DNA from: Patescibacteria group bacterium
GTDB lineage: Bacteria > Patescibacteriota > Patescibacteriia > GWA2-46-9
NCBI GenBank assembly: GCA_041675205.1
Contig: JBAYUF010000001.1
Coordinates: 84,863 to 148,862 of the forward strand
Direction of reading: 5' to 3'
Length of the DNA: 64,000 nucleotides
Part shown: positions 1,904 through 62,480 of the stretch, one piece after another
Numbering within the stretch: the stretch's first letter is position 1
Layout: each line of letters begins with the position of its first letter
The notes under the pieces: generated by a model
Seen by the model: only the letters and a program-made list of their open reading frames with translations
What the model was told of the DNA's origin: nothing
Database searches by the model: none
Program-made: the position numbers and the translations under genes

Positions 1904-3388
<1,485 letters not shown>

Positions 3389-3579: not shown

Positions 3580-4415
3580 TTAGTTTTTTGAATCGTAGGT
3601 AGCGGAAAGAAAATTGAGTGATTTGCCACTGTCTTTGAGGAGTTTGGCGTTCAAAGCTTCAGCCGCTTTGAGGTAGGTTAGGAGTTCTGGCGGGCAGTCG
3701 GACGCTTCTAACGCCCGACGGTAGGCAGCGAAGTCTTTGATAAGGCAGTGCCCACCAACACCGCGACCATCGTCATGAATAACATCGGTAAAAGAGGATT
3801 CAATATTGGGGTCAGCCACGAGTGCCTCTCGCACGTCGTCGTATGAAACTTCGTAGTGCTGGCAGAGTTCGTAGAGTGAGTTAGCAAAAAGAATTTTTAA
3901 GTAGCGATACACATTGCCGCCGTACTTAACAAGCGCCGCCGCACGAGCGTCCATTATTTTTACGTACGGCGCGGGTGGGAGAATAGCAATGACTTCTTCG
4001 GCGTGTGGTCGTGAGATTTCTGTGACGCCAATGATATGTCGAGCTGGGTTCGCCACTTCTTCAGCTGCGTACAATGCTCGTAAAAATTCTGGCGCATGAA
4101 TGATGGCAACCCCTGGTCGGAGTGCCTGTAGTTTGTCGGTTGTTTCAGGGAGGATGGTTGATTTAATGACAAGCACAGCACCATCACGCACTAGCGGAAG
4201 GGCAGCGACTAGTGCGCTGTCGTCAAAGCCTTGTGGCGTGGTTGGTGTGGGGACAGCAATGAAAACGATGTCGCACGTTGCAATCGCCTCGCGGTTTTCG
4301 ATGAAGGCAGGTTCGAGGCTATAGCGAACAATGTCGTAACCTCGTGCGGCAAAATTGTCAGCGTACGCTTTGCCAACAAATCCTTGCCCAATGAAGCCGA
4401 TGCGTTTCGTCATGA
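3580..4415 (-). CDS. nucleotide-sugar (UDP-glucose/GDP-mannose family) dehydrogenase, short form lacking most of the C-terminal UDP-sugar-binding domain
   Basis: N-terminal Rossmann motif IGFIGQGFVGK. Catalytic-Cys motif GGHCLIKD. Only ~54 aa follow the Cys. Start chosen at MTKRIGF; an in-frame ATG exists 39 nt upstream. Confidence 0.6.
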
Positions 4416-4595
4416 ATTTATTATACAACGAGAAAGTGGGGATGGTCATCAAAAATAAAAAAGCCCTCGATGGTGGGAGGTCATTGACGGGATACTTTAA
4501 CTTTTACACTTCGGTCAAGAAACAAATTTTGATGGCTTTCTAAAGTGCTTTGATAGATATTTTAAGGCTTGCCGACGTACTTCGCGTCGGGCCAG

Positions 4596-4922
4596 TTATT
4601 CACGAGTTTCTAAAGAATAAAGATCGTAGGCAATTTCTTCGTAAGGATGAACTTTTTTCAATGCCACTAGAACATCATCGACAACTGCAGCATCGCATTG
4701 GCATTCAATACGTTCTTCTTCTACTTCTTCAAATTTTCCGACCTCGCCTATGGTGGGATTAGCACCTTTCTCCGGCTTAAAACGACCAATCCCTCTAGTA
4801 CTAAAAGAACAGAAAGAATAATTTCCTAGTTTTCCAGCTCCGGCTTCGGCAATGGCTTTTCGACATTCATCGGCATTTGCCAAGGGCACCGTAAAAATGA
4901 GTTTGTATTTATTGGCCGACAT
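4596..4922 (-). CDS. small conserved hypothetical protein (108 aa, alpha/beta, CutA/PII-like impression; HPYEE motif)
   Basis: Clean ORF with a hydrophobic beta-strand start (KLIFTVP) and protein-like composition. Confidence 0.45.
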   Translation of the reverse strand: MSANKYKLIFTVPLANADECRKAIAEAGAGKLGNYSFCSFSTRGIGRFKPEKGANPTIGEVGKFEEVEEERIECQCDAAVVDDVLVALKKVHPYEEIAYDLYSLETRE

Positions 4923-5114
4923 AAGGTCTCGATTGTTTGATAAGTATTATTGGTGGCTACGATGAATAGGGTCGAACCGTTCAAGGGAACTTTATTAGAT
5001 CCCGTCTTCAATTTCTCTCGGTATAAACCGAGCGAAGTTACTCGTAGTAAATCTATCGAACTATTCGAATGATGTTTTGGGTCCTCGTTCGAATAACTAA
5101 CCAAGCTGTAACTA

Positions 5115-5581: not shown

Positions 5582-5658
5582 TGGTGGGCGTGGATGGACT
5601 CGAACCATCGACCTCTTCATTATCAGTGAAGTGCTCTAACCAACTGAGCTACACGCCC
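5582..5658 (-). tRNA. tRNA-Ile (anticodon GAT), CCA encoded
   Basis: Reverse complement folds as GGGCGTG/CACGCCC acceptor, anticodon loop CTGATAA, T-loop TTCGAGT. Confidence 0.9.
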
Positions 5659-12960: not shown

Positions 12961-13305
12961 AGCTGCGTATGATAATTGGTATAGGTAATAGAATGAAGAA
13001 GTAGCAAGAATAGGCGTATACTATATCAGGGAATCACTCAGGGGTCAAAACGTTGCTTGCGTATTTTTAAGAGTCCTCGGGTGCCGCTTCCGGTTACTTT
13101 CATGCGCGGTGACTGTTTCCGCTGACGAGTTTTTTGTTTTTTCTCGACAGACCGAACAGTCGGATGGTCGAGATCGTAATCATGCAGTGGTCGCTCAAGC
13201 ATAACAGTAGACAGTGTGCCAGTTTGGTGGTACAGTTGGCAACTGTTTCAGGTTCCGTTTGTTGCTACGAATTCTTTTAACCAAGCCTTTCACTTGGTGC
13301 GTCCT

Positions 13306-13989
13306 ATGGATCAGCATTCGCAAGCAGTACCGAAGCGGTGGCGGCATTGGTTGGCGCTCATCGTTATAGTTGGCGTTTTTATAGGAGCACTGTTGCTTCG
13401 ATTATTTGGTTCGGGCGATACCTTGCCGTCCAGGTCTGGATTTACCGTTGGAACTGTTCCGACCAACAGTACGGGCGCTGGGTCGCTAACTCGCTCAAGT
13501 AATCCCACCCTTGGACCAATTGATGCCCCCGTTCAAATAATTGAATTTTCAGATTTTGAGTGCCCGTTTTGTCAGCAGTCTTATTCCGCTATTCGAACGT
13601 TGGCGTTGCGCTACCCAGAAAAAGTGCGCGTCGTTTACCGACACTTCCCCGTGGCGTCTATTCATCCAAACGCGGTAGCTGTGGCTGAAGCCGCTCAGTG
13701 TGCTGCAGCGCAGGGAAAATTTTGGCCGTATCACGATCGATTATTTCAGAATCAATCCGCTATGACGAAAGTTCATCTCATACGGTATGCCAGTCAGGTG
13801 GGTTTGAGCGAACAGCAATTTTTAACCTGTATTGAAACAAGAGCGCAGCAGGTAGTAGTGGAAGAAGATTTGGCTGATGGCGTACGCCTTGGGGTGCGTG
13901 GTACCCCGACGTGGTTTATAAATGGTGAAAAAATAGAGGGTGCGCTGACGCTCGAAGGACTTACGGGCGTGGTTGAGCAGTTTAAGTAA
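13306..13989 (+). CDS. DsbA-family thiol:disulfide oxidoreductase, N-terminal TM anchor (copy 1)
   Basis: CPFC active site within FSDFECPFCQQ. C-terminal GTPTWFING cis-Pro region. The ORF-track start at 13216 is probably too early. Confidence 0.75.
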   Translation: MDQHSQAVPKRWRHWLALIVIVGVFIGALLLRLFGSGDTLPSRSGFTVGTVPTNSTGAGSLTRSSNPTLGPIDAPVQIIEFSDFECPFCQQSYSAIRTLALRYPEKVRVVYRHFPVASIHPNAVAVAEAAQCAAAQGKFWPYHDRLFQNQSAMTKVHLIRYASQVGLSEQQFLTCIETRAQQVVVEEDLADGVRLGVRGTPTWFINGEKIEGALTLEGLTGVVEQFK

Positions 13990-13991
13990 GT

Positions 13992-14990
13992 ATGAAGCGT
14001 TTTTTTCTAACAAGTAGTCTTTCTGTTGCCATGCTGATGCCGCAGCTGGTAAGGGCAATTGAATTTGTGCCATCAATATCAATTCCTGGAGTCGCTACAG
14101 CTGGCGAAAAAATTACCATTACGGGCAGTACTTTTGGTGAGTATATTGTCGGTCTATACAGTACGTCGCTGTCCGTTGGTGCGATTCTTTCCACGATTGT
14201 TTTACTCGTAGCTGGTTTTATATGGCTGACAGCGGCCGGGAATGTTGGTCAAATCGAAACAGCCAAAGATGTCGCCGGTGGAGCTGTGTCAGGTTTAGCC
14301 TTACTTTTATTGTCGTGGGTATTACTCAACACCATTAATCCTAATTTGGTTAATTTTAAAACCCTCGATATTGAATCAATTGTTGAACGGCCACTTTTTG
14401 ACTCACAAACAACATATTGTTGTTTGTGTGGAGAAACAAACCCAACATGTTCTGATCGTGTTACCCCATCAAAGGGTGAATGTCGCTGTACTGATACGAG
14501 CCTTTCAAAACTGTACGTATCAGAAAGTGAATGTGCTGCTCTTGGAGTCGGCTGTCAGTACATTGCGCAAACGGAAGCTGTACAGCGGCAAAATGCTCTT
14601 TCAATTTGTCAAAAAGAAAATCCGAGTAAAACGTGTCGATTACATACTTCTTCAGCAACGTGTTCAAATGTGGCGGAATGCCAAGCTGACTTAATAAGTA
14701 GTGGACGTTCGGGGCCATGTACATTAGAGAATAGCTGCGCATCTACATATGCATGTAACAAGGCGTGGGATTGTAGTACCGCAACCCCGAAACTAATTGG
14801 ACCAGATGAGATGGGCTGGGCTGGTATAAGGGGGTGTTGCAGACCAGCCGGTCGCGACGGTGATGCGTGTGGTGATGACGGATTAATAGATACTGCAAAT
14901 GATGATTGTGCTTCTGGCTACCATTGTGTAGCTCCGGATACTCACTATGGGCCAGCTTTTGAAGTCGGTGTCTGTCGTCCGAACACGTAA
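13992..14990 (+). CDS. secreted VirB2/TrbC-like two-helix pilin domain fused to a ~190-aa Cys-rich (~26 Cys) extracytoplasmic domain (copy 1)
   Basis: Sec signal peptide (…LVRA). Hydrophobic helix [15 protein letters not shown]. Short polar loop. Second helix [23 protein letters not shown]. Paralog at 48130-49191. Confidence 0.6.
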
Positions 14991-21854: not shown

Positions 21855-22562
21855 ATGATGGATTTTTTTCAAAAACTTGGCGTTCGATTTGATCAGCACA
21901 GCCAATCAATCCTGTTGGCGTTTCTGTTTTTTGTTGGTGGCGTTGGTCTCATTCTTGGTGGAATGAATTTGCGAAGCTCTTTACGAAATCCATTTATTGA
22001 AAAGGGTGTTGGCGCTCTTCAAACAGCCGAGGGAACAACAGCGCTGGTTGACACTGATGGTGATGGCTTAACCGACGAAGAGGAATTGGCGCAGTATGGC
22101 ACGAGTCCGTATTTGGCGGATTCTGACTCAGATGGCGCAAACGATGCCGATGAACTTGCTGCGAGCAGTGACCCCAATTGTCCAACTGGAAAAAATTGTC
22201 AGGCCGTGGCTGAACTTGATGTGCCGAGTAGCGCCGGTGATACCTTCTCGTCGCTCCTACAGGTTTCTGCAAATGGCACAACAGAACCAAGTGCGGCGCA
22301 GATTCGAGCGGCGTTGCTCACTTCCGGTGTGGCTGAATCAGAATTGGCAAAACTAACTGATGAAGAAATAGTTGCTGGGTATCGTAGCGCTGTGCAGGCT
22401 CAAACTTCAACGACAGCGAGTGATGGCGTTCAGAATCTTTCGACAGAAGAAATTCGAAAGGTACTTAAAGAGCAAGGAGTGACTGACGAGCAGCTCTCCA
22501 AAATTTCTGACACCGAACTGCTGAAACTTTACGAAGAGACGCTGCGTCAGACGCAGCCGTAG
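21855..22562 (+). CDS. membrane-anchored hypothetical protein with a DTDGDGLTDEEE calcium-binding-type motif and two tandem ~30-aa repeats (…EEIxxxLxxxGVxExxLxKxxDxE…)
   Basis: N-terminal TM segment. 235 aa. 9-nt gap to the giant gene. Confidence 0.6.
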   Translation: MMDFFQKLGVRFDQHSQSILLAFLFFVGGVGLILGGMNLRSSLRNPFIEKGVGALQTAEGTTALVDTDGDGLTDEEELAQYGTSPYLADSDSDGANDADELAASSDPNCPTGKNCQAVAELDVPSSAGDTFSSLLQVSANGTTEPSAAQIRAALLTSGVAESELAKLTDEEIVAGYRSAVQAQTSTTASDGVQNLSTEEIRKVLKEQGVTDEQLSKISDTELLKLYEETLRQTQP

Positions 22563-22570
22563 TTTTTTAT

Positions 22571-25500
22571 ATGCAGTTAGGATTACATAATCGGCAAAAG
22601 CGTCATCGGTTCGTGGGTGCACTACTCGCGCTTGTGTTTTTATTTACTGGCACGTTTGGAGCGCCGCAACGGGCGAATGCGCAAGCCATCAAGGCCTTTA
22701 CGACATCGGTTAGTGACATTTGGACTTCACTCCAAACTATTGGAGACAAAGCGGTGGCGGCGTACGAGAAAGCAGCAGATATAAAAACAGAAGCACTGAA
22801 AGAGTCGGCCGCGGTGAGCTTTCGTCAGGGCGTTAGTTATTTTTTAAATAAGATTGCCAGTGACACAGCCGTGTGGATTGCCAGCGGTGGGAAAGGGCAA
22901 AAGCCACTCTTTATTACGCAGGGGTGGGGTTCCTATTTGACCGATGCCGCAGAAGGGGCGGCCGGTGCTTTTGTTGATGGACTCATCACCGGCCCAGTGG
23001 CAAGTTGCCAATGTCGTGATCAATACGGCTCAATCGAACCAAATACGGCGACCGAGGAGGTGCAGTGTTTGACTACAACTACCATAAACGGAATTCCTGT
23101 TGAGTGTCAGTGGACCCCTGGTACGAAATCAGATTCAACAAATACGTTGGGACTTATTGCCCAAGGGTTATGTGCACCAGATGCTGATATTCAACTTTCC
23201 ATTAATTTAGGGTTAGCGAATTCCGGTCGACAGCGTGCCCCGAAGTGCACCTTTAGTCGCATTAAGCATAACTGGGAGCAATTAATTCGAGAGAAAAACT
23301 TTCTACCAACGCTTTCTCAGAGTTTTAACCCCAGTCAAAGCGACCTCGGCATTGCGTTGACACTGCAGTCAAATCTGTTGCTTGAAAAAAGAGAAGCCAA
23401 AGAGCGGGCAGAAAAAGAGCGACTTGAAGCTGGTGGGTATAAGCCAGTAACGGGCGGCGTAGGGGATGTTTTGAAGTTACCTGGTCAGACGGTGCGAGGT
23501 ATTTTTGACGGTGTTTTTAAAACGACAACTGAGCAGAATCAATCGCCGACCGGCACCATTATTGGTGATGCTGTTGATATTTTTGTGAATACATTGGCCA
23601 CTAACTTCTTGAAAAATCTTATCAGCGGTGGATTTAGTGGTAATACTTCTTCGAGCGGTGGGAATAAACCTAATTTGAGTAATTTTGAAGCCGAATCCGC
23701 CACTGAAGGGGTTCTTGGCGCGCAAGCTCGACTGGCGCAAGAGCTTCGTCCACGGTTTACTGTTCCTGGTCGGTATGACGTGTTGTCACAGCTCGTGAGT
23801 TGTCAGAATACAAAAAATCCAGGGCCGAATGATTGCGTCATTACTGATAGCTTTCGGAACGCCGTGTCGCAGCGCCTTACCGTTCGTGAAGCTGTTGATC
23901 GCGGACTCATTAACGCAGACGCACCGTTTGGATTTGTTGCGTGGGATCCACAATCAGTTGAGCCAAGTTACAATGAAGGGATACCGTATCGTTCAATTCT
24001 TATTCTACGAAAATATAGGATTGTACCAGTCGGGTGGGAGTTAGCCGCCCGCTACATTGAACGTTTTCAAGATGATTCCCCAAAACGAGTTACGCTTGGT
24101 GAGTTACTGAACCTTTACGATCAACCAGAGCTGCCGGGTGGAGCATTGAACCCATACTATCATTTAGTCGATCCGTCATGGGTGCTCGTGCCACCGGATT
24201 CGTTTTGCAAGTTGCAAGGTTCTGGTCCACAAATTCTAAGCCAGGATGTTTTGCCCGGTGTGGACTCTGACAATGATGGCAAGTTCACTTCAGTTGGTGA
24301 TACCGCCCCCAAAGTCGCGATTTCTCGAAATGCAAATTACTGTGCCGATGAACAGACCTGCATCGCTCGAGATAATGATGGGAACTGTAAGTTCTACGGG
24401 TATTGTACCGAAGAAAAACAAGTTTGGGATTTTGGTGGGAAGAGCTGTTCACCTCAGTTTTCAAGTTGTACCACATTAAAAAATGAACTCAGCGGTACTA
24501 CCGTCTCCTATCTCCTCAATACGGTTGATTTTTCTCCATGTGACGCTAGTTCCGTTGGTTGTGCCATGTATAGTGCAACACCATTGTCTGATACAGTCTG
24601 GAGCACGAGTGATGTCATATTCCTGAATAACCAAGCAGAAACGTGCAGTAAAGATGACGCGGGGTGCCGAAAGTTTATTCGTACCGGCGCGCAATTTCTA
24701 AATGGGTTAAGCACAAATTTAGTTCGTAATCCTGGATTTGAAGTGGTTGCAGAGGACAACAGCTTTACCGGATGGACCGCAAATGGCGGCGCCGTGGAGT
24801 CGGTCACCGAAGCGCAATTTAGTGGGAGCCGGTCACTCAAGGCAACAACACTTAGCGTGCTATCGCAGTCAGTTCTCACTGGGCCACTAGCCAATCAAAC
24901 CGTTACGCTTTCATTTGAAGCTCGTGGAGCCATTGCTGGTCAAGTTCTTGGTTATACCCTTGCGGCAGGTGATGCCATACAGACAGCCGCTACCCTTACC
25001 ACCGAGTGGCAGCACTATGAGGTGCGGAAAACCTATGGTGCCACAGCTGCTTCATCACTTACGCTGGAGCTGTCAGTCCTTACTGGTGTCGCAATTGACA
25101 ATGTAAAGATTCAGCTTGGTGCCGCGTCGGCGTATTCAGCATATGGCGAAGGGGCAAGTAATAGTTCGGTGTATTTAAAACGAGCACCGGCGTACCTCTC
25201 TGCGAAGACTGACATCGACTTTCTTGCAAGTAACGAACAGAGTTGTCGGCCCTCGGCGGTGGCTAGTGATGCCGTAGATGAGAATAGTGAACGGGCGGAA
25301 TGTCAGCCGTATGCCCGCTACTGCACACCGCAGGAAGCTGGTTGTCTGCGCTATACGCCCACCAATCGCACAACACCGGTAACGGCCGTGAGTGGTTCTT
25401 CGTGCCCGGGCGAGTGTGTTGGCTTTGACACCTACACCCAAGGGAAAACTTTCTTTGAGTCGGTAAAATTTGTTGACCTTATTCCTACCTCGGGAGAGCG

Positions 25501-28500
25501 TTGTTCAGCCGCCGCGGTTGGTTGTGATGAATTCACAAACTTAGACACAACAACGCAAGGCGGCGAATCGCGCGAGTTCTACCAACAGGTTCGATTCTGT
25601 GAATTACCAGGTAGAGCAGATGCCGGGACATTCTACACATGGGAAGGGTCAGACGACACCGGCTTCCAGTTGCGAGTCTTTACTTTAAAGAAAACGGATG
25701 TTGGAGTAGAAAATTATTTTGTAAACGATGTCGGTGACACCGGTGTTGACAGCGCCGCGCCGTGTACGAAAATTGATTGGTCCGACGATGGTCAGTCTGC
25801 GACCTGTGCTGATACAACGCAAACCGCTGACCCGGCGTGGCGAACCTGCAACGAGAACACCTATCAAGGGAATCCCGATTGTCGACAGTTTTATAATGAA
25901 GCTGGTTTAGTGTCGTACCGTTTGCTATCCCACACCATTAGCGTGACGGACCAATGTCGGCCATTACGGAAAACGACGTCCAACACCATAGATTGTGAGG
26001 CATCAAATGGTTGGTGGAACAGTGCGTTGCAGGCCTGCTTGTATCAAGCCGTGCCAGGTGAAGGTCGGCAGTGTAATGCGGCGGTTGCTGGCTGCCGTGA
26101 GTATCGAGGCGGCACAGCCGCTCGATATCGAACTATTTTAAATGACACCTTTGAGCGTGGCACTGGAAACTGGGAGGGTGGACGATTAAGCCCGGTGGCC
26201 AGTACAGTCGGCGGACATTCGTATGAAATACTTGATCGCACTACCCGTAAACCAGTAACGGTTTCTGATGGTAGCAGTACGGCAGTTGACGGCTCGGTTA
26301 CAAACGGGGCAACGTACGTCGTGAGTTTTTCAGCACGGGCACAAAATGGCGATACTGATTCAGCTTTCGTACTTTCTTTTGAAAGAAAGAGCGGGGAGGT
26401 CGACCTATTAATTACAGATTCTTTAACGAATGAGTGGCAAACATATCAGAGTGACCCAGTAACTATCTCTGTAGACCCTACTGACCCCCTGGTTGGTTTA
26501 CTTATAACGCATGCTGGTGCAGGTCGCGCTTATGTCGATAACGTTACATTACGCACCACGAGTGATACGCATTACCTCATTAAAAATTCTTGGCAAACAC
26601 CATCCGCTTGCTTTGCTCCGGACACTGGGGAACCCTATTTGGGTTGCCAATCATATAGAGTGAGTGACGGTTCGGAACGTTCTGTGTGGGAGTTTGGCGG
26701 AGCCTGTCATGATAAGGTCGTTGGCTGTGAAGCCGTCATCGACACGCAAAACACAACGATTGGTGAAGTAGCCCCCTTTGCTAAGACATTTGCTGAGGAC
26801 AGTGAAACAATCATTACCGTACCTGAAGACTCGCTCGACTATATCGTTAATGACCCAGCCAAAACATGTAAAGTAAGCGCCCAAGGGTGTGAGCTTTTGG
26901 GGAAAGCAAACCTTTCTACTGCGTCAGCATCTCCAACCCTTCCGTTGGCCTTAGCGGTTTTGCGATGCCACACACAAAGAAATTCTTGTGTTTCAGATTT
27001 GCGCATTAGATTAGTTGCCGCCGGGTATGATAAAGATTTGCTAACAACACCAGGTATTGATGAAAATTTAGTAGCGAAGTTTGACAGTAACGTTTTAGGC
27101 GCTAAGGATGCGTTACTCATCTTGCGCAATTCTGTTGGTCTTGGAGATCCAAACATTAGCACCTGGACGACAGGAGCTGTCTTAAATAATCCTGACACCT
27201 ACGACAGTATTCTTTGTCGAATTGATGAGCTTCAGTGTTCTGCCTTTACTGATAGCGGTGGCTCGACGTATTACTTTAAAGATCCAGGTAGCCAAATTTG
27301 TGAATACCGAACTGACAAACCAATCGCTGGTTGGTACGTTAAGGGAACCATAAGTCTGACCCCAGATTGTAACGCTAGTCAGAATGATCCTGACGTTAAC
27401 ATCCACATTGCCGGTGGCACTGCGCCTAGCCCGCAGTCTGGGTTTACTGGTGTGTGTCCGGCGCAGCAAAATAGTTGTCGCGAATTTATTGATCCTCGGT
27501 CTGATGGCAGCGCTAACATTCTCTATAACGGTGAGTTCATATTGAAAACTGATGACAAACCAGTTCGGTGGAAGGAAACGGTTCCTGGGGATATAGCTGA
27601 TGTAGAGGGTGGTGTTAAAATTATGGAGGGTGGTCTTGAGCAAGAGCGGGTGGCACTTCGAACGCGCACCCTGTACGTATTGTCAGCCGAGGTGAAAGCG
27701 GTAAATGCCGCCGCTACTAAAACAGCGGGCTATGTCGGTATAGATTGTGGCGTGGGTGAAGTGTTTACTGCTAGTGATATTCCCTATGCCTTTGCCGTGC
27801 CACGTTCTACGGAAACCTTCGAACGATTCAGTACACAGTTTTATGTTAGTGGTGACGACCAGGGTGATTGCACCGTTAGTGTTGGTTTGGCGGCAAGTTT
27901 GCTTCCTCGAGACAAAAGCGAATTTACCACAAATAGCGGTGTGATTGTTCGTGCCATTAGCTTACGCGAAGCAGGACTACACTATGAATTAGCCAATGGT
28001 GTATCGCAAAAAGATTGTGCTGGTACGGTAAACAATGCGAACTGCGTGCTGGTTGGTGTGCAGCAAGACTTCACCCAAAAAGGTATCACCGCCAATTTTG
28101 ATGCCGATACAAGCCCCACAAGTACGAAAGTGCCAAACAGCGATAGTCGGGGAGAGTATGTATGTATTACCGCCGAGAGCCGCTGTGTTGGAACTGATAG
28201 GGCGTGTACTAATGATAGCGACTGTCAGCTGCAAAAAGATGCAACGTTCATTGCTAGCGTGCAGCCAGGTCGCGAGTGTGGTGCATGGCTATCTTGCCGG
28301 ACGGCCAGAACAGTTGTCAAAGGTGGGGTTACTAATAACGTTTGTCTGGAGGTTGAAGGGTGCCAAGAGCTCGACGACAAGGGGAATTGTATTCGACGAG
28401 CCCCAGACGTTATTGATACTGACCTGACCTACACGGCAGCCACCGTCGACCTCTTGCGTAATCGGTCCGGGTATTCAAAGGTCGGCTTTGACTGGACAAC

Positions 28501-31036
28501 GGATCCGTTGAAGAAAAAAGTGATTCAGGGGTATTTAGCGCCAGGGATGATGAGCCAAATTGGTCAGTTAGCCGGGAATTTTAATGGTACCTTTGAGAGC
28601 GCTAGCATTGTTGGTGAACCGTTCGGGTGGGTTGGATGGGGGCAAGGCCAGAATATGCTGGTGATTGGTGACCCACTGGCTGCTCAGGATGCAGGCATTA
28701 GTTATCCTGCAGAAGGGAAGAATGTACTTGAGGTAAACGCCAATCATGCTGATCCAGACGCCAATCATGCTGATCCAGACGACGATTACGTGCTTAATGA
28801 TGCTTCAACAAATCTTTCTCGCTTTATTCCCGTTACACCAAACACCGAGTACGTGCTATCTGCTTTGGTGAACACAAGGCAATTCACTGGTGAAAGTAGC
28901 GAAGTTCGTGTCTTTGAATACAACGGCATTGCTGAAACTATTCCCAATGCCACGGGTGATAAGTTTTCTGCTCTACTTAACCTTGGTCGTGGGACTGAGT
29001 GGACTATTCGCACTGATAAATTTACAACAGCTAGCACTACGAGTTACGTGCGACTGCAACTTTCATGGGTGCCGCAGGCCGGTAAACCAGAGACTTCCGG
29101 GTTCTGGTATATTGATGATATTAAATTACAACCAGCACTTGAATATCAGAAAAATGAGTTTTATAACCCTAACGACCTGGCGGGTAGTAGGGTTGCTCCT
29201 GACTTTCCACCACTTGCCTATGAGCGAGGTTTAGAAACGCTTGATTATAAGTACGCTTCACAGTCATGCCGGCTTTACCCGCAGGCTGATGCCCTGTCGT
29301 GCTCCTACTTTGACGACAATGGATTAAAGCAGCGCGGTAAACTGGGTTATTGTTTGGAGTGGGACACGCAAAATAAGAATTACTGCATCCAGTGGTGGCC
29401 GGTGGACAATGTTATTGGTGAAGACAGTGAAGAAGATCGAGCCGGTTACGACGGCCCCGTTCCTTTGTACCAGTGCATTGAAACCTACGACGGCTTCTTA
29501 CCAGCCACCAGCAATAATTTTTACGGTGTCTATTACAATGGCAAACATTCCTCAATTAAAATAGAGGATCCGTGGGAAAGCTATCAGATAGAAGCAGATA
29601 GTACCGTTGTCATCGACCTCTTCAAGAGTGGCTTTGATGGTTTGCCAAATGTGTCATCCGGTGGCATTACTGATAAGCCTGGTACCTGCAACAGAGATGG
29701 CGGTGACATCACTGGGTGTGAAATCGCGATTCGTATATTGAAGGCTAGTGATGACGAGGATGAATGTGCCGAGGTGTATGTTGGTAACAAAATGGGACAG
29801 GTCGTTAATGGTGACGACAGTGAAGACGGGGATGTAAAAGTGAGAGCGGCAGAAGTGACAAGAGTTACAACCCGCAAGTCAGCCGCCTTTCTTGATTTAG
29901 CTGATCTTGGCCCTGAAAATAGTAAACGCAACTATCGGTATCTTAAAATTTCAACTATTGATACTGGTTGCGATCAATCAGAGATTCGGCTTTGGGTCCG
30001 TCCTAACTTTGCCTGCACGGCAGTGCTTCGAACAGTGGACGAGGATGGTACTAATAAGGCCTACGCCAGTCGGGTAACGTCTGGAGCTACCTACCCATTT
30101 AGTTTTCCAGGCGGTCTAACCTACGGGTATTCAACTGATAGCCCACCATTTGGTTCGGCGGTGCCGCCAGCCCCGGCGGGAGATCCCACGCAATGGGATA
30201 CCAATACTGAAGCTGGAAAACAGGCACTGTTCGCTATGCCGAAGCAGGTGAATACTAGCAACAAAGAGCTCGCCCGAGCTGGTGGCCCGTATAGCTGTCT
30301 TTCGATTGGTTCAGTGCAACCTTTCGTTGCCGAAGGTGAGCCATGGACCTGGGGAGGGACGGTTAGCATTAGGCAGCCAGCATGTGCTTCTTATCTTGGT
30401 GTACCTGGAGTAGTCGGGGGTCGTAATGAGGCGGTTAAACTGCTACAAAATTTATTTGTTAAGAGCTACGGGATGTGGGAGTGGAAGAATGAAGCATACA
30501 CTCCAGCAACTGGTGCTATTTTAACAGTACCGGATGAGCGGTGTAAGAATAATGTTCGACCCGAACCGGATGATCCTGATGCTGCCGATGCTTGCTTTGT
30601 GTATCCAGGTATTCCAAAGGCTGTGTTAGACACAACAACCGTTAAGGATGTCGGTGTTGTTGGTATTAGATTCACCGCCGTAGCTGACTCCGACCAGGAG
30701 CCTATTGTGCAGTACATAGTAGACTGGAGGGACGGCTCTAAGACTACGCAAACAGGCTTACGACTTTCCAGCCGTTCAGAAATTGCGCAGGCGATTTCGC
30801 TCACTCACAATTACTCTTTTGATCAAATCAGTCAGTGCAAAGAAAATGGTGATTGTGGGGATGTTGGCGGTACCGGTACCGATAGCAATCCGTTCACTGT
30901 CAAGCCACAGGTGCAAATTCTAGATAACTGGGGATTCTGTAGCGGTAGTACCCTTGGTTCGGGAGACAGCCTGAGCACGGGTGGCTGTACAGGCTCATGG
31001 AAAGAGACGGAAAACGAGGTAGAGATTACCAGATAG
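22571..31036 (+). CDS. giant secreted Cys-rich protein (2,821 aa) with several CBM4/9- or galactose-binding-like beta-sandwich segments
   Basis: Signal peptide with a …RANA|QA cleavage site. Uninterrupted 8.5-kb ORF. Recurring NPGFE…GW-type segments. High Cys content. Confidence 0.85.
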   Translation: MQLGLHNRQKRHRFVGALLALVFLFTGTFGAPQRANAQAIKAFTTSVSDIWTSLQTIGDKAVAAYEKAADIKTEALKESAAVSFRQGVSYFLNKIASDTAVWIASGGKGQKPLFITQGWGSYLTDAAEGAAGAFVDGLITGPVASCQCRDQYGSIEPNTATEEVQCLTTTTINGIPVECQWTPGTKSDSTNTLGLIAQGLCAPDADIQLSINLGLANSGRQRAPKCTFSRIKHNWEQLIREKNFLPTLSQSFNPSQSDLGIALTLQSNLLLEKREAKERAEKERLEAGGYKPVTGGVGDVLKLPGQTVRGIFDGVFKTTTEQNQSPTGTIIGDAVDIFVNTLATNFLKNLISGGFSGNTSSSGGNKPNLSNFEAESATEGVLGAQARLAQELRPRFTVPGRYDVLSQLVSCQNTKNPGPNDCVITDSFRNAVSQRLTVREAVDRGLINADAPFGFVAWDPQSVEPSYNEGIPYRSILILRKYRIVPVGWELAARYIERFQDDSPKRVTLGELLNLYDQPELPGGALNPYYHLVDPSWVLVPPDSFCKLQGSGPQILSQDVLPGVDSDNDGKFTSVGDTAPKVAISRNANYCADEQTCIARDNDGNCKFYGYCTEEKQVWDFGGKSCSPQFSSCTTLKNELSGTTVSYLLNTVDFSPCDASSVGCAMYSATPLSDTVWSTSDVIFLNNQAETCSKDDAGCRKFIRTGAQFLNGLSTNLVRNPGFEVVAEDNSFTGWTANGGAVESVTEAQFSGSRSLKATTLSVLSQSVLTGPLANQTVTLSFEARGAIAGQVLGYTLAAGDAIQTAATLTTEWQHYEVRKTYGATAASSLTLELSVLTGVAIDNVKIQLGAASAYSAYGEGASNSSVYLKRAPAYLSAKTDIDFLASNEQSCRPSAVASDAVDENSERAECQPYARYCTPQEAGCLRYTPTNRTTPVTAVSGSSCPGECVGFDTYTQGKTFFESVKFVDLIPTSGERCSAAAVGCDEFTNLDTTTQGGESREFYQQVRFCELPGRADAGTFYTWEGSDDTGFQLRVFTLKKTDVGVENYFVNDVGDTGVDSAAPCTKIDWSDDGQSATCADTTQTADPAWRTCNENTYQGNPDCRQFYNEAGLVSYRLLSHTISVTDQCRPLRKTTSNTIDCEASNGWWNSALQACLYQAVPGEGRQCNAAVAGCREYRGGTAARYRTILNDTFERGTGNWEGGRLSPVASTVGGHSYEILDRTTRKPVTVSDGSSTAVDGSVTNGATYVVSFSARAQNGDTDSAFVLSFERKSGEVDLLITDSLTNEWQTYQSDPVTISVDPTDPLVGLLITHAGAGRAYVDNVTLRTTSDTHYLIKNSWQTPSACFAPDTGEPYLGCQSYRVSDGSERSVWEFGGACHDKVVGCEAVIDTQNTTIGEVAPFAKTFAEDSETIITVPEDSLDYIVNDPAKTCKVSAQGCELLGKANLSTASASPTLPLALAVLRCHTQRNSCVSDLRIRLVAAGYDKDLLTTPGIDENLVAKFDSNVLGAKDALLILRNSVGLGDPNISTWTTGAVLNNPDTYDSILCRIDELQCSAFTDSGGSTYYFKDPGSQICEYRTDKPIAGWYVKGTISLTPDCNASQNDPDVNIHIAGGTAPSPQSGFTGVCPAQQNSCREFIDPRSDGSANILYNGEFILKTDDKPVRWKETVPGDIADVEGGVKIMEGGLEQERVALRTRTLYVLSAEVKAVNAAATKTAGYVGIDCGVGEVFTASDIPYAFAVPRSTETFERFSTQFYVSGDDQGDCTVSVGLAASLLPRDKSEFTTNSGVIVRAISLREAGLHYELANGVSQKDCAGTVNNANCVLVGVQQDFTQKGITANFDADTSPTSTKVPNSDSRGEYVCITAESRCVGTDRACTNDSDCQLQKDATFIASVQPGRECGAWLSCRTARTVVKGGVTNNVCLEVEGCQELDDKGNCIRRAPDVIDTDLTYTAATVDLLRNRSGYSKVGFDWTTDPLKKKVIQGYLAPGMMSQIGQLAGNFNGTFESASIVGEPFGWVGWGQGQNMLVIGDPLAAQDAGISYPAEGKNVLEVNANHADPDANHADPDDDYVLNDASTNLSRFIPVTPNTEYVLSALVNTRQFTGESSEVRVFEYNGIAETIPNATGDKFSALLNLGRGTEWTIRTDKFTTASTTSYVRLQLSWVPQAGKPETSGFWYIDDIKLQPALEYQKNEFYNPNDLAGSRVAPDFPPLAYERGLETLDYKYASQSCRLYPQADALSCSYFDDNGLKQRGKLGYCLEWDTQNKNYCIQWWPVDNVIGEDSEEDRAGYDGPVPLYQCIETYDGFLPATSNNFYGVYYNGKHSSIKIEDPWESYQIEADSTVVIDLFKSGFDGLPNVSSGGITDKPGTCNRDGGDITGCEIAIRILKASDDEDECAEVYVGNKMGQVVNGDDSEDGDVKVRAAEVTRVTTRKSAAFLDLADLGPENSKRNYRYLKISTIDTGCDQSEIRLWVRPNFACTAVLRTVDEDGTNKAYASRVTSGATYPFSFPGGLTYGYSTDSPPFGSAVPPAPAGDPTQWDTNTEAGKQALFAMPKQVNTSNKELARAGGPYSCLSIGSVQPFVAEGEPWTWGGTVSIRQPACASYLGVPGVVGGRNEAVKLLQNLFVKSYGMWEWKNEAYTPATGAILTVPDERCKNNVRPEPDDPDAADACFVYPGIPKAVLDTTTVKDVGVVGIRFTAVADSDQEPIVQYIVDWRDGSKTTQTGLRLSSRSEIAQAISLTHNYSFDQISQCKENGDCGDVGGTGTDSNPFTVKPQVQILDNWGFCSGSTLGSGDSLSTGGCTGSWKETENEVEITR
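28739..28780 (+). repeat. perfect 21-bp tandem duplication inside the giant gene (ANHADPD x2, in frame)
   Basis: gccaatcatgctgatccagac is repeated twice head-to-tail. Confidence 0.9.
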
Positions 31037-31039
31037 GGT

Positions 31040-31369
31040 ATGGCAAATACATTTAGCAGCGTTGACGAACAATTGCTTGCCCAAAATAGTGATGTGGGTG
31101 AACAAGAGCGCGCACAGCAACTGCGTGGGCTGCAGTCTATTGCCCGTCGGCAACTCGCCTCGCGGGCGGTGAAAAAGGGTGCTGGGGCAGCAGCCCGTTC
31201 GGGCGCCATGGGGGCCGCAAAAGCCGCTCGAACAATTTGGATTATTATGGCTGCTCTTGCCACCCCGGAAGTCTTGACGGTCGTTATCGTTTTGATGCTT
31301 CTTGTACTCTTCATGAATTACGCCTTATCGATACCAGTTGTCGGCGACATACTGAAGTGGTTTCTATGA
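31040..31369 (+). CDS. small membrane protein (109 aa, C-terminal TM hairpin)
   Basis: 4-nt gap after the giant gene. Its stop overlaps the next start (ATGA). Confidence 0.55.
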   Translation: MANTFSSVDEQLLAQNSDVGEQERAQQLRGLQSIARRQLASRAVKKGAGAAARSGAMGAAKAARTIWIIMAALATPEVLTVVIVLMLLVLFMNYALSIPVVGDILKWFL

Positions 31370-34300
31370 GTTTTCGTGATCTCTTAAAGAAGAAATATAT
31401 ACGTCGTCAGGTATTGATAGCTGCAATGCTCGGTTTCATTGTCATGCTTCCTATCGGTGTTAAGGCAGCAGGGATTGGTGACGGGATTCAGGGGACCATC
31501 TTCGGAGTACTTTCATGGGGCATTTATGGCATTGTGCTCTTTTTATCTCGTTTTACCGTTTGGCTTGTCGGTTTTTTAGTAAGCATCGGACAGTATAACG
31601 GATTTATTAATTCACCAGTTGTGTTGCAGGGTTGGGTGGTATTGCGAGATATATCGAACATGTTCTTTGTACTCATCCTACTTTTGATAGCGTTTGGCAC
31701 CATCCTTCATATTGAGCAATATCAAATGAAACGATTGCTGCCCAAAGTGCTCCTCATGGCAATCTTGGTTAACTTTAGTAAAGCCATCGCCGGGCTGCTG
31801 ATTGATTTCTCACAAGTTATAATGCTCACTTTTGTGGCGGCGTATCAGGCTGCCGGAGCGGGGAATTTAGCGCAGGCAATGCATCTAGATAAAATTTTAG
31901 CAATAAAAAATACAGAGGATGGTGGTTTGTTTGATGAAGCTGCTGCCGAGACGCTCGTGGCATTACTACTTGCACTTGTATACATAGTCGTTGCCTCGGT
32001 TGTTGTTGGGGCTTTTGCGGTGATACTTGTGGTACGAATGGTGATGTTGTGGTTGCTCATCATTTTTTCACCACTCGCCTACGTCCTTTCCGTTGTGCCT
32101 ATTGGGCAAAAGTATGCCAGTCAGTGGTGGGAAAATTTTGCAAAATATGTAATTTTAGGTCCGGTCATGGCATTTTTCTTGTGGCTATCACTCGCCACAC
32201 TGCCGACCCTTATTGCAAGTGACGCCGACCTTGCTGTTCGTACACAATCAAGCGGTAGCGCACAATCACTCGCCGAAGAGAAAGAGCAAGTCAAAACCAT
32301 CGGTATTACAGAGATTGGCTCTGGGTCTGTGATGTCCGGATTTCTCATCAGCATCGTTATGCTCTTTGCGTCGCTCATGTTTGCAATCCAGACTGGTGGC
32401 GTGGTTGGGAAGATTGCTGGTGGTGCCTATGGTCAATTACTGAGTAAAGGCACCACAGTGGCAAAGATACCATTAGGCCTTGCCAGTTGGGGAGAAAGAA
32501 AGGTTGCTCGCATGACGGGTGGTGTAACCGCATTTCTGAACCCAGTCCGGGTTGCTCGGGCTTGGCGTGGTTACGCTGCACACAAAGCGGGTCGTGAGGA
32601 GGCAGAAATTGGCTATCGAGCAGGGAGCGCCGCTAGTGCTCATTTTGCCGCTGGTCGAGGGGTGCGCGGCGCACTGCGATTAATGGCCGGAGCGCATGAA
32701 GATGCTTTTGAAACGTATATGGGAACGCATGGAGTGATGCGTTTTGTCAAAACCATGAGCGGCAACAGTAAAACAGGTACGAATGATTTTCTTGATGCGA
32801 AACGATTACAGCAAGAGGCAGATATTGAGCGGGAAACTTTCAATGCCGCAACTGATAAGGGGCGAGTAGATAAGATTCGGCAAATTGGAAAAGAGCACTA
32901 TGCCGACAAATTTCGTACCAAGATTATGAAGGAGGAAGTTGATCGCGTCAGTGTTATTCGTGGTTTTGGGAAAAGCGACAATAAACTTGACCCCTATAAT
33001 TCACGTAAAGAAATTAACGATGAAGGTAAGCAAGAAGTAGTTACCCTTAAAGACGCAGCAGAAAAAGCAGGCGTTGATTTAACAGACACTAGCAGTAGTA
33101 CAACACAGGCGTTTCTGCGTGAATGGGATGAAGATAATGCCCGTCGTGATTTAGGTAAGCGGCCAGGTGGTTTGGAGGGTCGGGTGAGCGCACTTGTTGC
33201 AAAAAAGGGCGATGCTGATATTTTGGACCAAGGCAAACGTACGCTCGGTGAGAAATTAAAAGCGCAAGAATCCTATGTTACGGAGCTTATGGCGGGTGGG
33301 CTTTCGAGCACAGAAAAAGCAACACGTGAGCAACAAGAAAAGACAGTAGATGAAGAATTACGACGTATTACTGCGGCGCTTAAAACGGCAAGTGGTGTTG
33401 AGAAACAATCACTCAACGCACTAAAGACAGAATTACAGAAAGAAAAAAAGAGTGGTCGATTTGATAAAGACACTGCAGGTAACTACTTACTGACCAAGAA
33501 AGAACGGGATGAAAATAAAGAGAAAATTAAAGACTTCAGTGATCCTCGCCGGGCTGATTACAGCAGTGCGCTTAAAGAGCAGAAAAAGCTTTACGGGATG
33601 ACGTTAGACCCAGCCGACGCCGCAGAAAAGATGGAAATTGACCGTGCGAAAGCGAAGGCAGATGAAATAATGGCTCGTAGAAAGGAGCCAGATGTGGCAC
33701 CTCGCCCGTATTTTGCCGAACAAGCATTCAGGCATTTAGAGTCGGAAGAATCGTCGAAATTACCGCGCGAAGCCATGGAGTACGACGAAATTGATGCATT
33801 ACTGAAAGATGCATTACATGAGGGGAACATCGTGAAAACATCAGCGCTCATGAAGAAAGCGGCGAAAGATGCTAACGACAACGAAATTTGGAATAGTTTC
33901 GGTTATGGTAGTGGGCCCGAAGGTGCTGAGCAATTTAGAAAGGCAAAACTTGTCCCATTAATGGGGGACCAGGCCTCAATGTCACTCATGAGTGAGCTGA
34001 ACTATATTAACGAAGATATTGGTCACACTAACACCACTCGTTCGTATGGGGTGAGGAATGGTTCATACTATAAGAAATCTGCAGCTGAGCAATCGGCATC
34101 CGCGGCGTGGGAAGTAACGAAACGGCAATCACGAAACTTTTTGCAAAATACAAACCGACTTGGTTTTGGGTATGAAGATACTGAAGGCAAGTTTCACCTT
34201 GATTTAACTGGCAAGCTTATCATTTCATCAATGCAAAATGACATGAATTACCGGTTGAATCGAAAAGAGTTTAACAACAACCTATTGTTGAAATTACTAG

Positions 34301-34455
34301 AAGACGTAGATTCGCTCGACGACATGGTACGACGGGGTCTATTGCGGAGAGATTTGGTTGATAATATGAAGTCGCTAGGCCGAGAACATGTGCGGCGCGG
34401 TGTACCGAATAGCCCGGGTGGTTTTGAGTCAATGGCACGGCAGCTTTCCGTTTAG
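31366..34455 (+). CDS. VirB6/TrbL-like polytopic membrane protein with a ~600-aa coiled-coil-rich hydrophilic C-terminal extension (TcpH/PrgH-like architecture)
   Basis: ≥7 TM segments in the first ~400 aa, then a K/E-rich region. Start chosen at the ATGA overlap rather than the track start 31237. Confidence 0.6.
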   Translation: MSFRDLLKKKYIRRQVLIAAMLGFIVMLPIGVKAAGIGDGIQGTIFGVLSWGIYGIVLFLSRFTVWLVGFLVSIGQYNGFINSPVVLQGWVVLRDISNMFFVLILLLIAFGTILHIEQYQMKRLLPKVLLMAILVNFSKAIAGLLIDFSQVIMLTFVAAYQAAGAGNLAQAMHLDKILAIKNTEDGGLFDEAAAETLVALLLALVYIVVASVVVGAFAVILVVRMVMLWLLIIFSPLAYVLSVVPIGQKYASQWWENFAKYVILGPVMAFFLWLSLATLPTLIASDADLAVRTQSSGSAQSLAEEKEQVKTIGITEIGSGSVMSGFLISIVMLFASLMFAIQTGGVVGKIAGGAYGQLLSKGTTVAKIPLGLASWGERKVARMTGGVTAFLNPVRVARAWRGYAAHKAGREEAEIGYRAGSAASAHFAAGRGVRGALRLMAGAHEDAFETYMGTHGVMRFVKTMSGNSKTGTNDFLDAKRLQQEADIERETFNAATDKGRVDKIRQIGKEHYADKFRTKIMKEEVDRVSVIRGFGKSDNKLDPYNSRKEINDEGKQEVVTLKDAAEKAGVDLTDTSSSTTQAFLREWDEDNARRDLGKRPGGLEGRVSALVAKKGDADILDQGKRTLGEKLKAQESYVTELMAGGLSSTEKATREQQEKTVDEELRRITAALKTASGVEKQSLNALKTELQKEKKSGRFDKDTAGNYLLTKKERDENKEKIKDFSDPRRADYSSALKEQKKLYGMTLDPADAAEKMEIDRAKAKADEIMARRKEPDVAPRPYFAEQAFRHLESEESSKLPREAMEYDEIDALLKDALHEGNIVKTSALMKKAAKDANDNEIWNSFGYGSGPEGAEQFRKAKLVPLMGDQASMSLMSELNYINEDIGHTNTTRSYGVRNGSYYKKSAAEQSASAAWEVTKRQSRNFLQNTNRLGFGYEDTEGKFHLDLTGKLIISSMQNDMNYRLNRKEFNNNLLLKLLEDVDSLDDMVRRGLLRRDLVDNMKSLGREHVRRGVPNSPGGFESMARQLSV

Positions 34456-34467
34456 GTAAATTTCACT

Positions 34468-35892: not shown

Positions 35893-35894
35893 GT

Positions 35895-36326
35895 ATGCAG
35901 CAGTTTATTATTCCCCAGTTCATTGATGAAGAACCCCATATTCTTGGGCCGATAACTGTTCGACAGTTTTTGCTGCTTCTCATTGCGGGCTTCTTTATTT
36001 TCCTCAGCTATCGACTCGCGGATACTGCCTTATTTATTGTGCTGACCATAGTACTACTCATCATAAGCATAACTTTGGCATTCGTTCGGGTGAACGGTCG
36101 CCCTTTTCATTTCTTTTTGCTAAATTTAGTGCAGACATTGCAACGTCCTCGGTTACGCATTTGGCGCAAAGAAGTGAGCAGAGAAGAAATTCAGGACGAA
36201 TCAAAAATGCCAGTCCTCGTCCCAACTGTCATAGTGGCGAAAGCGCCCATTAGTCGTTCCCGTTTGGCGGAACTCTCACTCATTGTTGATACGGGTGGGG
36301 CATATGCTGGTACTGAAGGTAATTAG
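35895..36326 (+). CDS. VirB3/TcpE/PrgI-like small membrane protein (143 aa, two TM helices)
   Basis: Size, two-helix topology and its position immediately upstream of VirB4. Confidence 0.45.
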   Translation: MQQFIIPQFIDEEPHILGPITVRQFLLLLIAGFFIFLSYRLADTALFIVLTIVLLIISITLAFVRVNGRPFHFFLLNLVQTLQRPRLRIWRKEVSREEIQDESKMPVLVPTVIVAKAPISRSRLAELSLIVDTGGAYAGTEGN

Positions 36327-36343
36327 CGTGTAATTGAAAATAA

Positions 36344-54942: not shown

Positions 54943-55093
54943 AGGAATTTTCTTGTAATGTGTGGTATAATAAATTTTGAGCGAACCATATTTTCAATCA
55001 TTTTCTTTTGCAATCGTACCGAAAAAACAAGCAAACGTCAACGTTTGCGGAATTTATTTCTCGCCCTGTTGTTCGGGGTATGTATACAAACGC

Positions 55094-56107: not shown

Positions 56108-56113
56108 CGAACT

Positions 56114-57052: not shown

Positions 57053-57054
57053 CC

Positions 57055-57447: not shown

Positions 57448-57552
57448 ACCGTTGCGAAGAAGTTGTATGACTGGTAAACTACTCTCGTGCATTTACGCAC
57501 TTGTGCATAGTGATATGATTCAAAATTTTCAACTGAAAGGGGGTGAACACGC

Positions 57553-57981: not shown

Positions 57982-58007
57982 TTTTCGATTCACTATTTCG
58001 TTTTCAT

Positions 58008-58044
58008 AAAGTACACCCCAGAACTTCTGGGGTGTACTTTATTC
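58008..58044 (+). terminator. Rho-independent terminator after the pilin gene
   Basis: aaagtacaccccag-aact-tctggggtgtacttt followed by att. Confidence 0.7.
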
Positions 58045-58057
58045 GTCGTAACTGTTT

Positions 58058-59701: not shown

Positions 59702-62480
<2,779 letters not shown>

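Follow-up and report, generated by a model that had tools for sequence, protein, structure and literature searches.

We analyzed a 64-kb stretch of contig JBAYUF010000001.1 from a Patescibacteria group bacterium (positions 84,863 to 148,862; hereafter, the window), in which a gene encoding a membrane-anchored DsbA-like oxidoreductase is directly followed by a gene encoding a 332-aa protein, called here PILF1. PILF1 consists of a hairpin scaffold of the PF18895 family, that is, of proteins predicted to be pilins of the type IV secretion system (T4SS) in Patescibacteria, and a large cysteine-rich C-terminal domain (hereafter, the head). The linkage of the two genes is conserved in many Patescibacteria, while the head is hypervariable, with sharp edges at the DNA level. 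The reading that we favor, with moderate confidence, is that PILF1 is a surface protein built on the PF18895 pilin scaffold, whose head is folded by the DsbA and mediates strain-specific contact with the host. The window sequence is contained, with full identity, in a 213-kb metagenome contig (ERZ27247358 k141_1393887), and the genome-level absences reported below refer to the visible 64 kb of these 213 kb.

The dsbA-PILF1 gene pair

Both open reading frames (ORFs) are found where the original prediction, made from the sequence alone, had placed them, and all peptide strings quoted there are present in the translations.

13306-13989, plus strand: DsbA-like thiol:disulfide oxidoreductase, membrane-anchored, 227 aa (PF13462, PF01323, hydropathy)
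13992-14990, plus strand: pilin-hairpin fusion PILF1, 332 aa (homologues; PF18895 at the family level)

The TAA stop codon of dsbA ends at 13989 and the ATG of PILF1 is at 13992, the spacer being 2 nt, and the gap between the end of PILF1 and uvrA is 5 nt. No terminator-like site was found between dsbA, PILF1 and uvrA, and dsbA is preceded by a weak promoter-like site (13208-13236). We propose that dsbA and PILF1 share one transcript and may be translationally coupled. The ATG at 13306 as the start of dsbA agrees with the public gene caller. The public gene call for PILF1 (P0001) begins at Met14 (nt 14031) and yields 319 aa; since homologues such as P0002 align from Met1, and only Met1 gives a proper n-region of the signal peptide, the deposited protein is probably truncated at the N-terminus.

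The enzyme was described originally as a membrane DsbA with the CPFC active site lying immediately upstream of the fusion gene, and this holds. It matches PF13462 (E 2.9e-26, 93 bits, cut-off 23.2) and PF01323 (E 1.6e-20, 74.1 bits, cut-off 25.6), and retains, along with CPFC, a GTP motif of the cis-Pro type (GTPT). The only hydrophobic anchor indicated by hydropathy is N-terminal (residues 12-38) and is preceded by KRWRH, which fits an N-in anchor with a presumably extracytoplasmic catalytic domain.

The pilin scaffold of PILF1

The N-terminal part of PILF1 is comprised of the following segments.

13992-14057, plus strand: Sec-type signal peptide, residues 1-22, with an MKR n-region and predicted cleavage between VRA and IEF (sequence reading; equivalent N-terminus in all homologues)
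14058-14156, plus strand: N-terminal extracytoplasmic scaffold segment, residues 23-55 (33 aa), with F.P.ISIPG and GEYI motifs (alignment)
14157-14339, plus strand: two-helix transmembrane (TM) hairpin, residues 56-116, with TM1 at 56-81, a predicted cytoplasmic loop at 82-96 and TM2 at 97-116; PF18895 core (hydropathy, model, Pfam)
14337-14348, plus strand: N-P-N-L motif, residues 116-119, at the outer end of TM2, the C-terminal limit of the pilin module (alignment)

The signal peptide and the two-helix hairpin had both been predicted. Hydropathy shows two strong hydrophobic segments (52-88 and 93-120), not a single one. The full-length AlphaFold model, built from six sequences, is poor (pLDDT 51) and was used for helix positions only (48-80 and 85-115). 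Residues P32, G33, Y51 and I52 are invariant in the alignment of PILF1 homologues, as is NPxL in the hairpin alignment (N69, P70 and L72 in alignment numbering).

The PILF1 sequence alone scores below the PF18895 gathering score of 26.6 (18.2 bits at full length, 20.9 bits for the hairpin only, matching residues 61-115), while the homologues P0007, P0008, P0009 and P0010 score 29-32 bits and the one from locus L027 scores 44 bits. PF18895 is the top family for all 15 aligned hairpins, including that of a second fusion protein of the window, PILF2 (best E 4.7e-9). Moreover, a profile built from fused proteins alone retrieves 204 short proteins at E <= 1e-3 (best 2e-25), most of them already annotated as PF18895. 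These results support, at the level of sequence, the homology of the PILF1 hairpin to the predicted Patescibacteria T4SS pilins.

Canonical PF18895 pilins (100-140 aa) share with PILF1 the signal peptide, the PLE.IPG ... FP.Y motifs, the GG..YLT.AGN turn and the TINP(N/D)L end. As these scaffold motifs are common to the short and fused forms, PILF1 comprises the entire pilin module, extended by a large C-terminal part. In particular, short pilins stop 5-25 residues past the NP(N/D)L motif, while PILF1, unlike these small proteins, continues for 216 residues beyond the hairpin, so its 190-aa domain, rightly placed by the original prediction beyond the usual pilin end, is a genuine C-terminal addition. 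The search with the 80-aa profile listed only proteins of at most 140 aa, and architectures were therefore counted from genome loci.

The cysteine-rich head

Two features were delineated in the remaining part of the protein.

14418-14987, plus strand: Cys-rich ectodomain, residues 143-332, 190 aa, 22 Cys (11.6%), with a predicted alpha/beta N-terminal subdomain and a predicted disulfide-knotted C-terminal subdomain
14835-14975, plus strand: Dickkopf/colipase-like terminal subdomain, approximately residues 282-328, pattern CC..G..GD.C..D..C.SGY.C...G.C

The number of cysteines is 22, not approximately 26 as originally claimed, and all 22 of them are C-terminal to residue 142, that is, in the part of PILF1 predicted to be outside. 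An exhaustive HMMER scan of 1.84 billion representative proteins yielded six relatives of the head at E <= 1e-3, all of them 320-360 aa long and of the same architecture as PILF1. The 22-Cys framework is kept in four homologues at 33-41% identity, and because of this conservation in diverged proteins the pattern cannot be due to chance.

Searches with the head domain produced no match in Pfam and NCBIfam even at E <= 1, and nothing in the PDB sequences when the head was used alone. A profile of eight head domains matched only DKK1/DKK2 CRD2 chains among 177,635 PDB sequences (E 9.3e-8 to 2.6e-5, a score that Cys-rich composition may inflate). The match spans the last ~45 residues, about a quarter of the head, and its structural score is weak; the terminal subdomain is plausibly of the Dickkopf/colipase type. 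In the AlphaFold model of the head (pLDDT 77, pTM 0.58), the N-terminal half is alpha/beta, and the C-terminal half is small, rich in beta structure and dense in disulfides.

Conservation of the pair in Patescibacteria

Relatives were collected by a hairpin-motif scan of one genome per species (GTDB). At least 439 stretches encode a relative, and the best 80 loci, with 118 hairpin genes, were analyzed; all of them come from metagenome-assembled genomes (MAGs) of the Patescibacteria type. The counts over the 80 loci include shared ancestry and do not represent independent events.

An extension of at least 100 aa past the hairpin is present in 105 of the 118 hairpin genes (median 196), and so the fused architecture predominates in this hairpin subfamily throughout Patescibacteria. 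The architecture had originally been called unrecognized; indeed, it was not described in the literature that we found, although it is not rare. The extensions contain 6.7% Cys, compared to 0.95% in neighboring proteins, and the number of cysteines is even in 106 of 118. In 51 of 80 loci, a DsbA-like gene is found no more than 6 kb from the fusion gene, being upstream on the same strand in 49 of these 51; it is directly adjacent in 24 loci, and three por genes intervene in the rest.

The fusion genes occur in four main genomic contexts.

Context A (as in the PILF1 locus), ~13 loci: SecG (opposite strand), DsbA, PILF, UvrA
Context B, ~34 loci: DsbA, porG, porD, porA, PILF, porB
Context C (as in the PILF2 locus), ~15 loci: ClpC, beta-propeller-like gene, DsbA, PILF, RadA, RecG (opposite strand)
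Context D, 7 loci: PILF directly after PrgI, TraC-N and VirB4 genes, or before VirB6-like and PrgI genes

The order SBP_bac_5 (minus), SecG (minus), DsbA, fusion, UvrA, LeuRS is kept in loci where the fusion proteins are only 34% and 47% identical. Locus L042 is an A/B hybrid, and thus contexts A and B derive from one ancestral locus. In L027 and L077, VirB4 is joined to context C. The conservation of the pairing, expected from the original prediction, is therefore observed, and by comparison of these loci the DsbA linkage has survived deep divergence, gene insertion and duplication. None of the outcomes that the original prediction named as speaking against it (a different topology, absence of VirB2-family similarity, a pair not conserved in relatives) was found.

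In context B the fusion gene is inside the 2-oxoacid:ferredoxin oxidoreductase operon (for example, L004 at 4001-5110, L013, L016, L017, L021, L025, L029, and approximately 28 more loci), the gene of this predicted surface protein being retained between porA and porB. Tandem arrays of two to four fused pilin genes are seen in L034 (3032-8222), L017, L063, L050 and L073, where, from the second gene on, the members frequently carry a long Cys-rich region (8-17 Cys) N-terminal of the hairpin in addition to the one that follows it. Many of the MAGs (L013, L016, L021, L031, L032, L034, L040 and others) are titled "uncultured Gammaproteobacteria bacterium" in their records, with single cases of "Pacearchaeota archaeon", "Binatia" and "Humimicrobiaceae"; these titles are probably taxonomic mislabels or binning errors.

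The second DsbA-fusion pair

The hairpin hidden Markov model (HMM) finds only two PF18895 hairpins in the window, PILF1 and PILF2, and the latter also follows a DsbA-like gene, with a spacer of 1 nt.

49193-49891, minus strand: second DsbA-like gene, 232 aa, CPYC, N-terminal TM anchor (PF13462 E 6.2e-27; hydropathy)
48130-49191, minus strand: paralogous fusion PILF2, 353 aa, with the same scaffold and another C-terminal domain containing 12 Cys and H..D / HxH-type motifs (hairpin HMM E 1e-29; phmmer E 1e-22)

This pair is flanked by a beta-propeller-like gene and ClpC on one side and by RadA and RecG on the other, and the synteny of ClpC, the beta-propeller-like gene, DsbA, PILF, RadA and RecG is retained in ~15 species loci. 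The His-rich C-terminal domain of PILF2 has no database match, and its profile gave no match among PDB sequences; its H..D/HxH motifs may indicate a LAS-type zinc peptidase. At the same genomic position, locus L091 carries an Amidase_2 domain (E 1.2e-18) as the cargo, and the homologue P0009 an M23 peptidase-like one (E 7e-6, just below the cut-off).

The two pairs bear on the question whether the DsbA is dedicated to the fusion protein. The enzyme could instead be a general extracytoplasmic oxidase, adjacent to the fusion gene merely due to inherited synteny, and we regard this as unlikely. The synteny blocks are indeed old and shared, so that the 51 loci are not independent, Cys-rich heads of relatives embedded in T4SS loci (L036, L072, L080) have no adjacent DsbA, and CxxC has been lost in some partners, as approximately nine DsbA-like proteins from other loci have CxxS/T or no motif. 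Still, the linkage is kept in three contexts and survives the insertion of three por genes between the partners, the upstream position on the same strand is seen in nearly all linked loci, each of the two DsbA genes of the window is immediately upstream of a fusion gene (2 nt and 1 nt), and no other products of these loci come close to the fusion proteins in Cys content.

The atypical partners have CxxS/T in L017, L044, L045, L090 and L092 (CPYT, CPNS, CPYS, CPFS), and the motif is gone in L065, L077 and L087. Selenocysteine in these positions was considered and rejected, as translation of the upstream sequence in frame revealed CxxS/T or no motif, without an in-frame TGA. Oxidation is therefore not the sole role of the partner everywhere, and the sequences of single-Cys and motif-less proteins suggest an isomerase or chaperone-like role, or a decayed one.

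Hypervariability of the head

The head of PILF1 is shared by only one of the 118 relatives (E < 1e-3). The strain comparison was made with locus L093, the contig encoding P0002, which belongs to a closely related strain with flanks ~85% identical to the window. The protein identity is 87% for DsbA, 88% for the signal peptide and hairpin, and 100% for the start of UvrA, compared to 28.5% for the head, which contains 22 Cys in the window and 14 in L093.

14377-14976, plus strand: hypervariable cassette (sliding-window DNA identity to L093 falls from ~80-90% to 35-57%, and then returns to 83%)

Such a sharp-edged drop of the DNA identity points to allelic replacement of a cassette rather than gradual drift. 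Neither silent cassettes nor head repeats were found elsewhere in the 64-kb window. Origin from a diversity-generating retroelement is unlikely, as the alleles differ by indels and the number of cysteines across the whole 600 nt.

The 5' boundary of the cassette is ~10 residues past the NPxL motif. This is one of the observations suggestive of PILF1 being a precursor, in which the hairpin is an export or carrier module and cleavage near NPxL frees a soluble disulfide-knotted toxin, bacteriocin or signaling factor directed against host or competitor cells. The invariant N-P-x-L coincides with the junction, and the head resembles typical secreted factors in its Dickkopf/colipase- and knottin-like character; moreover, TrbC/VirB2 pilins undergo C-terminal processing. 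We nevertheless consider this very unlikely: NPxL also terminates the short pilins, in which there is nothing to be released, and so the motif is a part of the pilin module; no protease gene is linked at the loci; and no cleavage-site consensus follows NPxL in the homologue alignment.

Relation to the T4SS genes of the window

The window contains a T4SS operon with a core of the monoderm type.

35895-38898, plus strand: T4SS operon core, monoderm-type (Pfam PrgI E 2.2e-8, P-loop_TraG E 4.1e-29)
35895-36326, plus strand: PrgI/VirB3-like
36344-37045, plus strand: VirB4 N-terminal part (TraC-N-like ORF)
37042-38898, plus strand: VirB4 ATPase ORF, with a 4-nt overlap with the TraC-N-like ORF

The hairpin HMM finds no PF18895 gene in the operon or adjoining it. 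In 7 loci, a relative of PILF1 is encoded directly after virB4 or beside VirB6-like and PrgI genes, and 2 further loci have one no more than 6 kb from virB4; the relatives of L010, L036, L062, L072 and L080 are within the T4SS gene cluster. The case for PILF1 supplying VirB2 in trans to the operon at 31-39 kb is circumstantial. In favor of extraction and polymerization of the scaffold by the VirB4 machine, the full pilin scaffold is conserved, some relatives reside in T4SS operons, and other pilin genes are absent from the window.

The operon as a whole (31040-39455, plus strand) also holds a 109-aa small membrane ORF, a 474-aa protein with no assigned function, a 185-aa membrane-anchored protein, and a ~1,030-aa polytopic protein, which has no Pfam match and is VirB6-like by position only; ComF (39455-40168, plus strand) is located at its end. 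Neither a relaxase nor a coupling protein was seen in 31040-39455. Immediately upstream (21855-31036, plus strand) are genes for a 235-aa protein with a bacterial TSP3 repeat and a 2,821-aa Cys-containing secreted giant, for which the public record shows a weak CBM_4_9 match. These two proteins may constitute a giant adhesin of the same host-contact apparatus.

Proposed role of PILF1

According to the reading that we favor, the Sec pathway would insert PILF1 with removal of the signal peptide, the hairpin with its short loop facing the cytoplasm and both termini, including the 190-aa head, being outside. The membrane-anchored CPFC DsbA made from the same transcript would then oxidize the emerging head, forming up to 11 disulfides, and would thereby give a cell without a periplasm a compact head that resists proteases. 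Displayed on the surface, the head would bind the surface of host cells in a strain-specific manner (its Dickkopf/colipase-like part possibly being the binding or membrane-contacting element). As a cassette, it would be exchanged between strains or diversified, with no change of the scaffold and the DsbA. Perhaps the VirB4 machine also feeds PILF1 into a VirB2-like filament with the C-terminus outward, though such incorporation into a T4SS pilus is speculative.

Along with the properties of the DsbA partners described above, several observations weigh against the role of PILF1 as a pilin-scaffold surface protein for host contact. Concerning the VirB2/TrbC pilin domain of the original prediction, the homology to the T4SS pilins of PF18895 stands, while the similarity to PF04956 (TrbC/VirB2) is marginal: 2 of the 15 hairpins reach E 0.028 and a further relative reaches E 0.0084, all under the 27.9-bit cut-off. 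The hairpin profile matched none of the solved pilins in PDB, giving only chance-level matches to photosystem and rhodopsin-transducer helices; the label "VirB2-like" is based on the Pfam assignment and the published structure-based annotation (PMC10633639, PMC12102498, PMC12857230). Neither a demonstrated PF18895 pilus nor an experimental filament structure was found in the literature searched. PILF1 is ~17 kb away from the VirB6-like/PrgI/VirB4 operon, and most fusion genes, including that of PILF1, are in housekeeping surroundings, not in T4SS operons. If every subunit bears a 20-kDa head, packing in a VirB2-type filament might not be possible. Finally, Foldseek with the head model gave no match for the overall fold in PDB and viral models, and no DsbB/VKOR family match was found among the scanned ORFs of the 64-kb window.

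Some of these observations would be explained if PILF1 were a plain membrane-anchored surface protein, the hairpin being only a two-helix anchor that is never extracted by the T4SS or polymerized, and the ectodomains working at the cell's own envelope (in wall remodeling for the hydrolase-bearing paralogues, and as structural or receptor domains for the Cys-rich ones). We hold this to be possible, if somewhat unlikely. It agrees with the housekeeping character of most loci (SecG/UvrA, the por operon, ClpC/RadA), where no T4SS gene is found within 6 kb, with the large size of the heads, with the Amidase_2 and M23 cargos, which are typical of membrane-anchored autolysins, and with the lack of a significant match to solved VirB2/TraA pilins. 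On the other hand, the whole scaffold common to the fused and short forms (the signal peptide, IPG/FP.Y, the GG..W/YLTAAGN turn and NPxL) exceeds the needs of a simple anchor, several genomes place the fused gene directly after virB4, and strain-level hypervariability is unusual in housekeeping envelope proteins.

A bolder extension of the pilin-scaffold reading, which seems to us doubtful, is that the VirB4 machine polymerizes the scaffold into a short filament, or exposes PILF at the contact site, and every subunit, or a tip subunit, bears a DsbA-folded, disulfide-knotted head for binding one particular structure of the host envelope; the hydrolase paralogues would then breach the host wall, and exchange of the head cassettes would switch the host range, making the fused proteins host-specificity determinants. 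If true, this would be a pilin-borne modular system for display of adhesins and effectors, with no characterized counterpart among T4SSs.

Comparison with known systems

Among Patescibacteria assemblies with VirB4, 1,948 also contain PF18895 pilins, and in 1,135 of them the pilin gene is near virB4 (PMC12102498, Quinonero-Coronel et al. 2025). Predicted pilin genes, forming an array in the T4SS cluster, are essential in Ca. Southlakia epibionticum (PMC10633639, Wang et al. 2023), and T4SS pilins are among the genes of unknown function with the highest expression in methanogen-parasitizing Patescibacteria (PMC10936435). PF18895 pilins, their arrays and the link to the essential monoderm-type T4SS are already known (PMC12102498, PMC10633639, PMC12857230); no description of the fused form, of the DsbA partner or of the cassette variability was found in the literature (open-access text only).

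By homology, PILF1 is placed in PF18895, although its length, architecture, genomic position and partner gene set it apart from the family. The short pilins have the same scaffold, come from the same phylum, form tandem arrays, and, like some relatives of PILF1, reside in PrgI/VirB4 operons; they are only 100-140 aa long and stop after the hairpin, whereas PILF1 has the additional 190-aa 22-Cys domain, the DsbA partner and a housekeeping locus. With the VirB2/TrbC/TraA pilins of diderm T4SSs (PF04956), PILF1 shares the signal peptide, two hydrophobic helices, a short loop and both termini outside (the latter predicted in PILF1). In contrast to them, PILF1 has no significant HMM or PDB-sequence match, is three times longer, belongs to a monoderm, is not linked to cyclization or maturation enzymes, and is only a putative pilus subunit.

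Pilus and adhesin subunits requiring DsbA, and the membrane-anchored MdbA/DsbA of Actinobacteria, are examples of DsbA with dedicated or virulence-associated substrates (PMC9974433, PMC5478893, PMC8405906). As in the actinobacterial enzymes, the DsbA of the window has a CPxC thioredoxin fold and an N-terminal helix anchor in a monoderm, and its gene adjoins one for an exported Cys-rich protein. Unlike in those cases, its gene appears to be translationally coupled to that of one putative substrate, the genome has a second copy of the pair, no DsbB/VKOR is seen in the window, and some orthologues have CxxS/T.

The likeness to the Dickkopf CRD2/colipase/prokineticin fold is limited to about a quarter of the head, the N-terminal alpha/beta subdomain having no known relative, and implies no link to Wnt or lipases. 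The hypervariable regions of type IV pilins, VirB5 and tip adhesins, and the VirB2 arrays of Bartonella and Anaplasma (cited in PMC12102498) resemble PILF in combining a constant scaffold with a strain-variable exposed module whose edges are sharp and recombination-like, and in the tandem paralogue arrays seen in relatives, the likeness being in logic only; in PILF the variable part is a whole disulfide-rich domain on a VirB2-like hairpin, and the window has no silent cassettes.

Recognition, attachment and exploitation of hosts by Patescibacteria are a central open question, and T4SS and "pilin" genes of these bacteria are essential or highly expressed, with unknown function (PMC10633639, PMC11665869, PMC10936435). 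Our analysis defines a widespread module of three parts: a pilin-type scaffold that is conserved, a head that is hypervariable and either disulfide-rich or enzymatic, and a DsbA co-transcribed with the fusion gene. As the module occupies few fixed genomic positions, it can readily be located in any Patescibacteria genome and compared from strain to strain, and it supplies testable candidates for host-range determinants. It also provides a rationale for the retention of one or more DsbA genes in organisms that have neither a periplasm nor a respiratory chain. Moreover, when "VirB2" genes are counted, PF18895 matches need to be sorted by length and architecture.

Other features of the window

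The RNA genes of the window are one 16S rRNA and eight tRNAs. The 16S rRNA gene is complete (1904-3386, plus strand), no 23S or 5S rRNA genes are present in the 64 kb, and the tRNA nearest to 16S, tRNA-Ile, is on the opposite strand (5582-5658). The rRNA operon of this genome thus appears unlinked in the window, as has often been reported for Patescibacteria.

A type IV pilus gene set (54977-60471, plus strand), separate from the T4SS pilin-like genes, includes the following genes.

54977-56107, plus strand: PilM
57055-57447, plus strand: response regulator
57553-57981, plus strand: prepilin with an N-methylation motif
58058-59701, plus strand: PMT_2 glycosyltransferase
59698-60471, plus strand: prepilin peptidase

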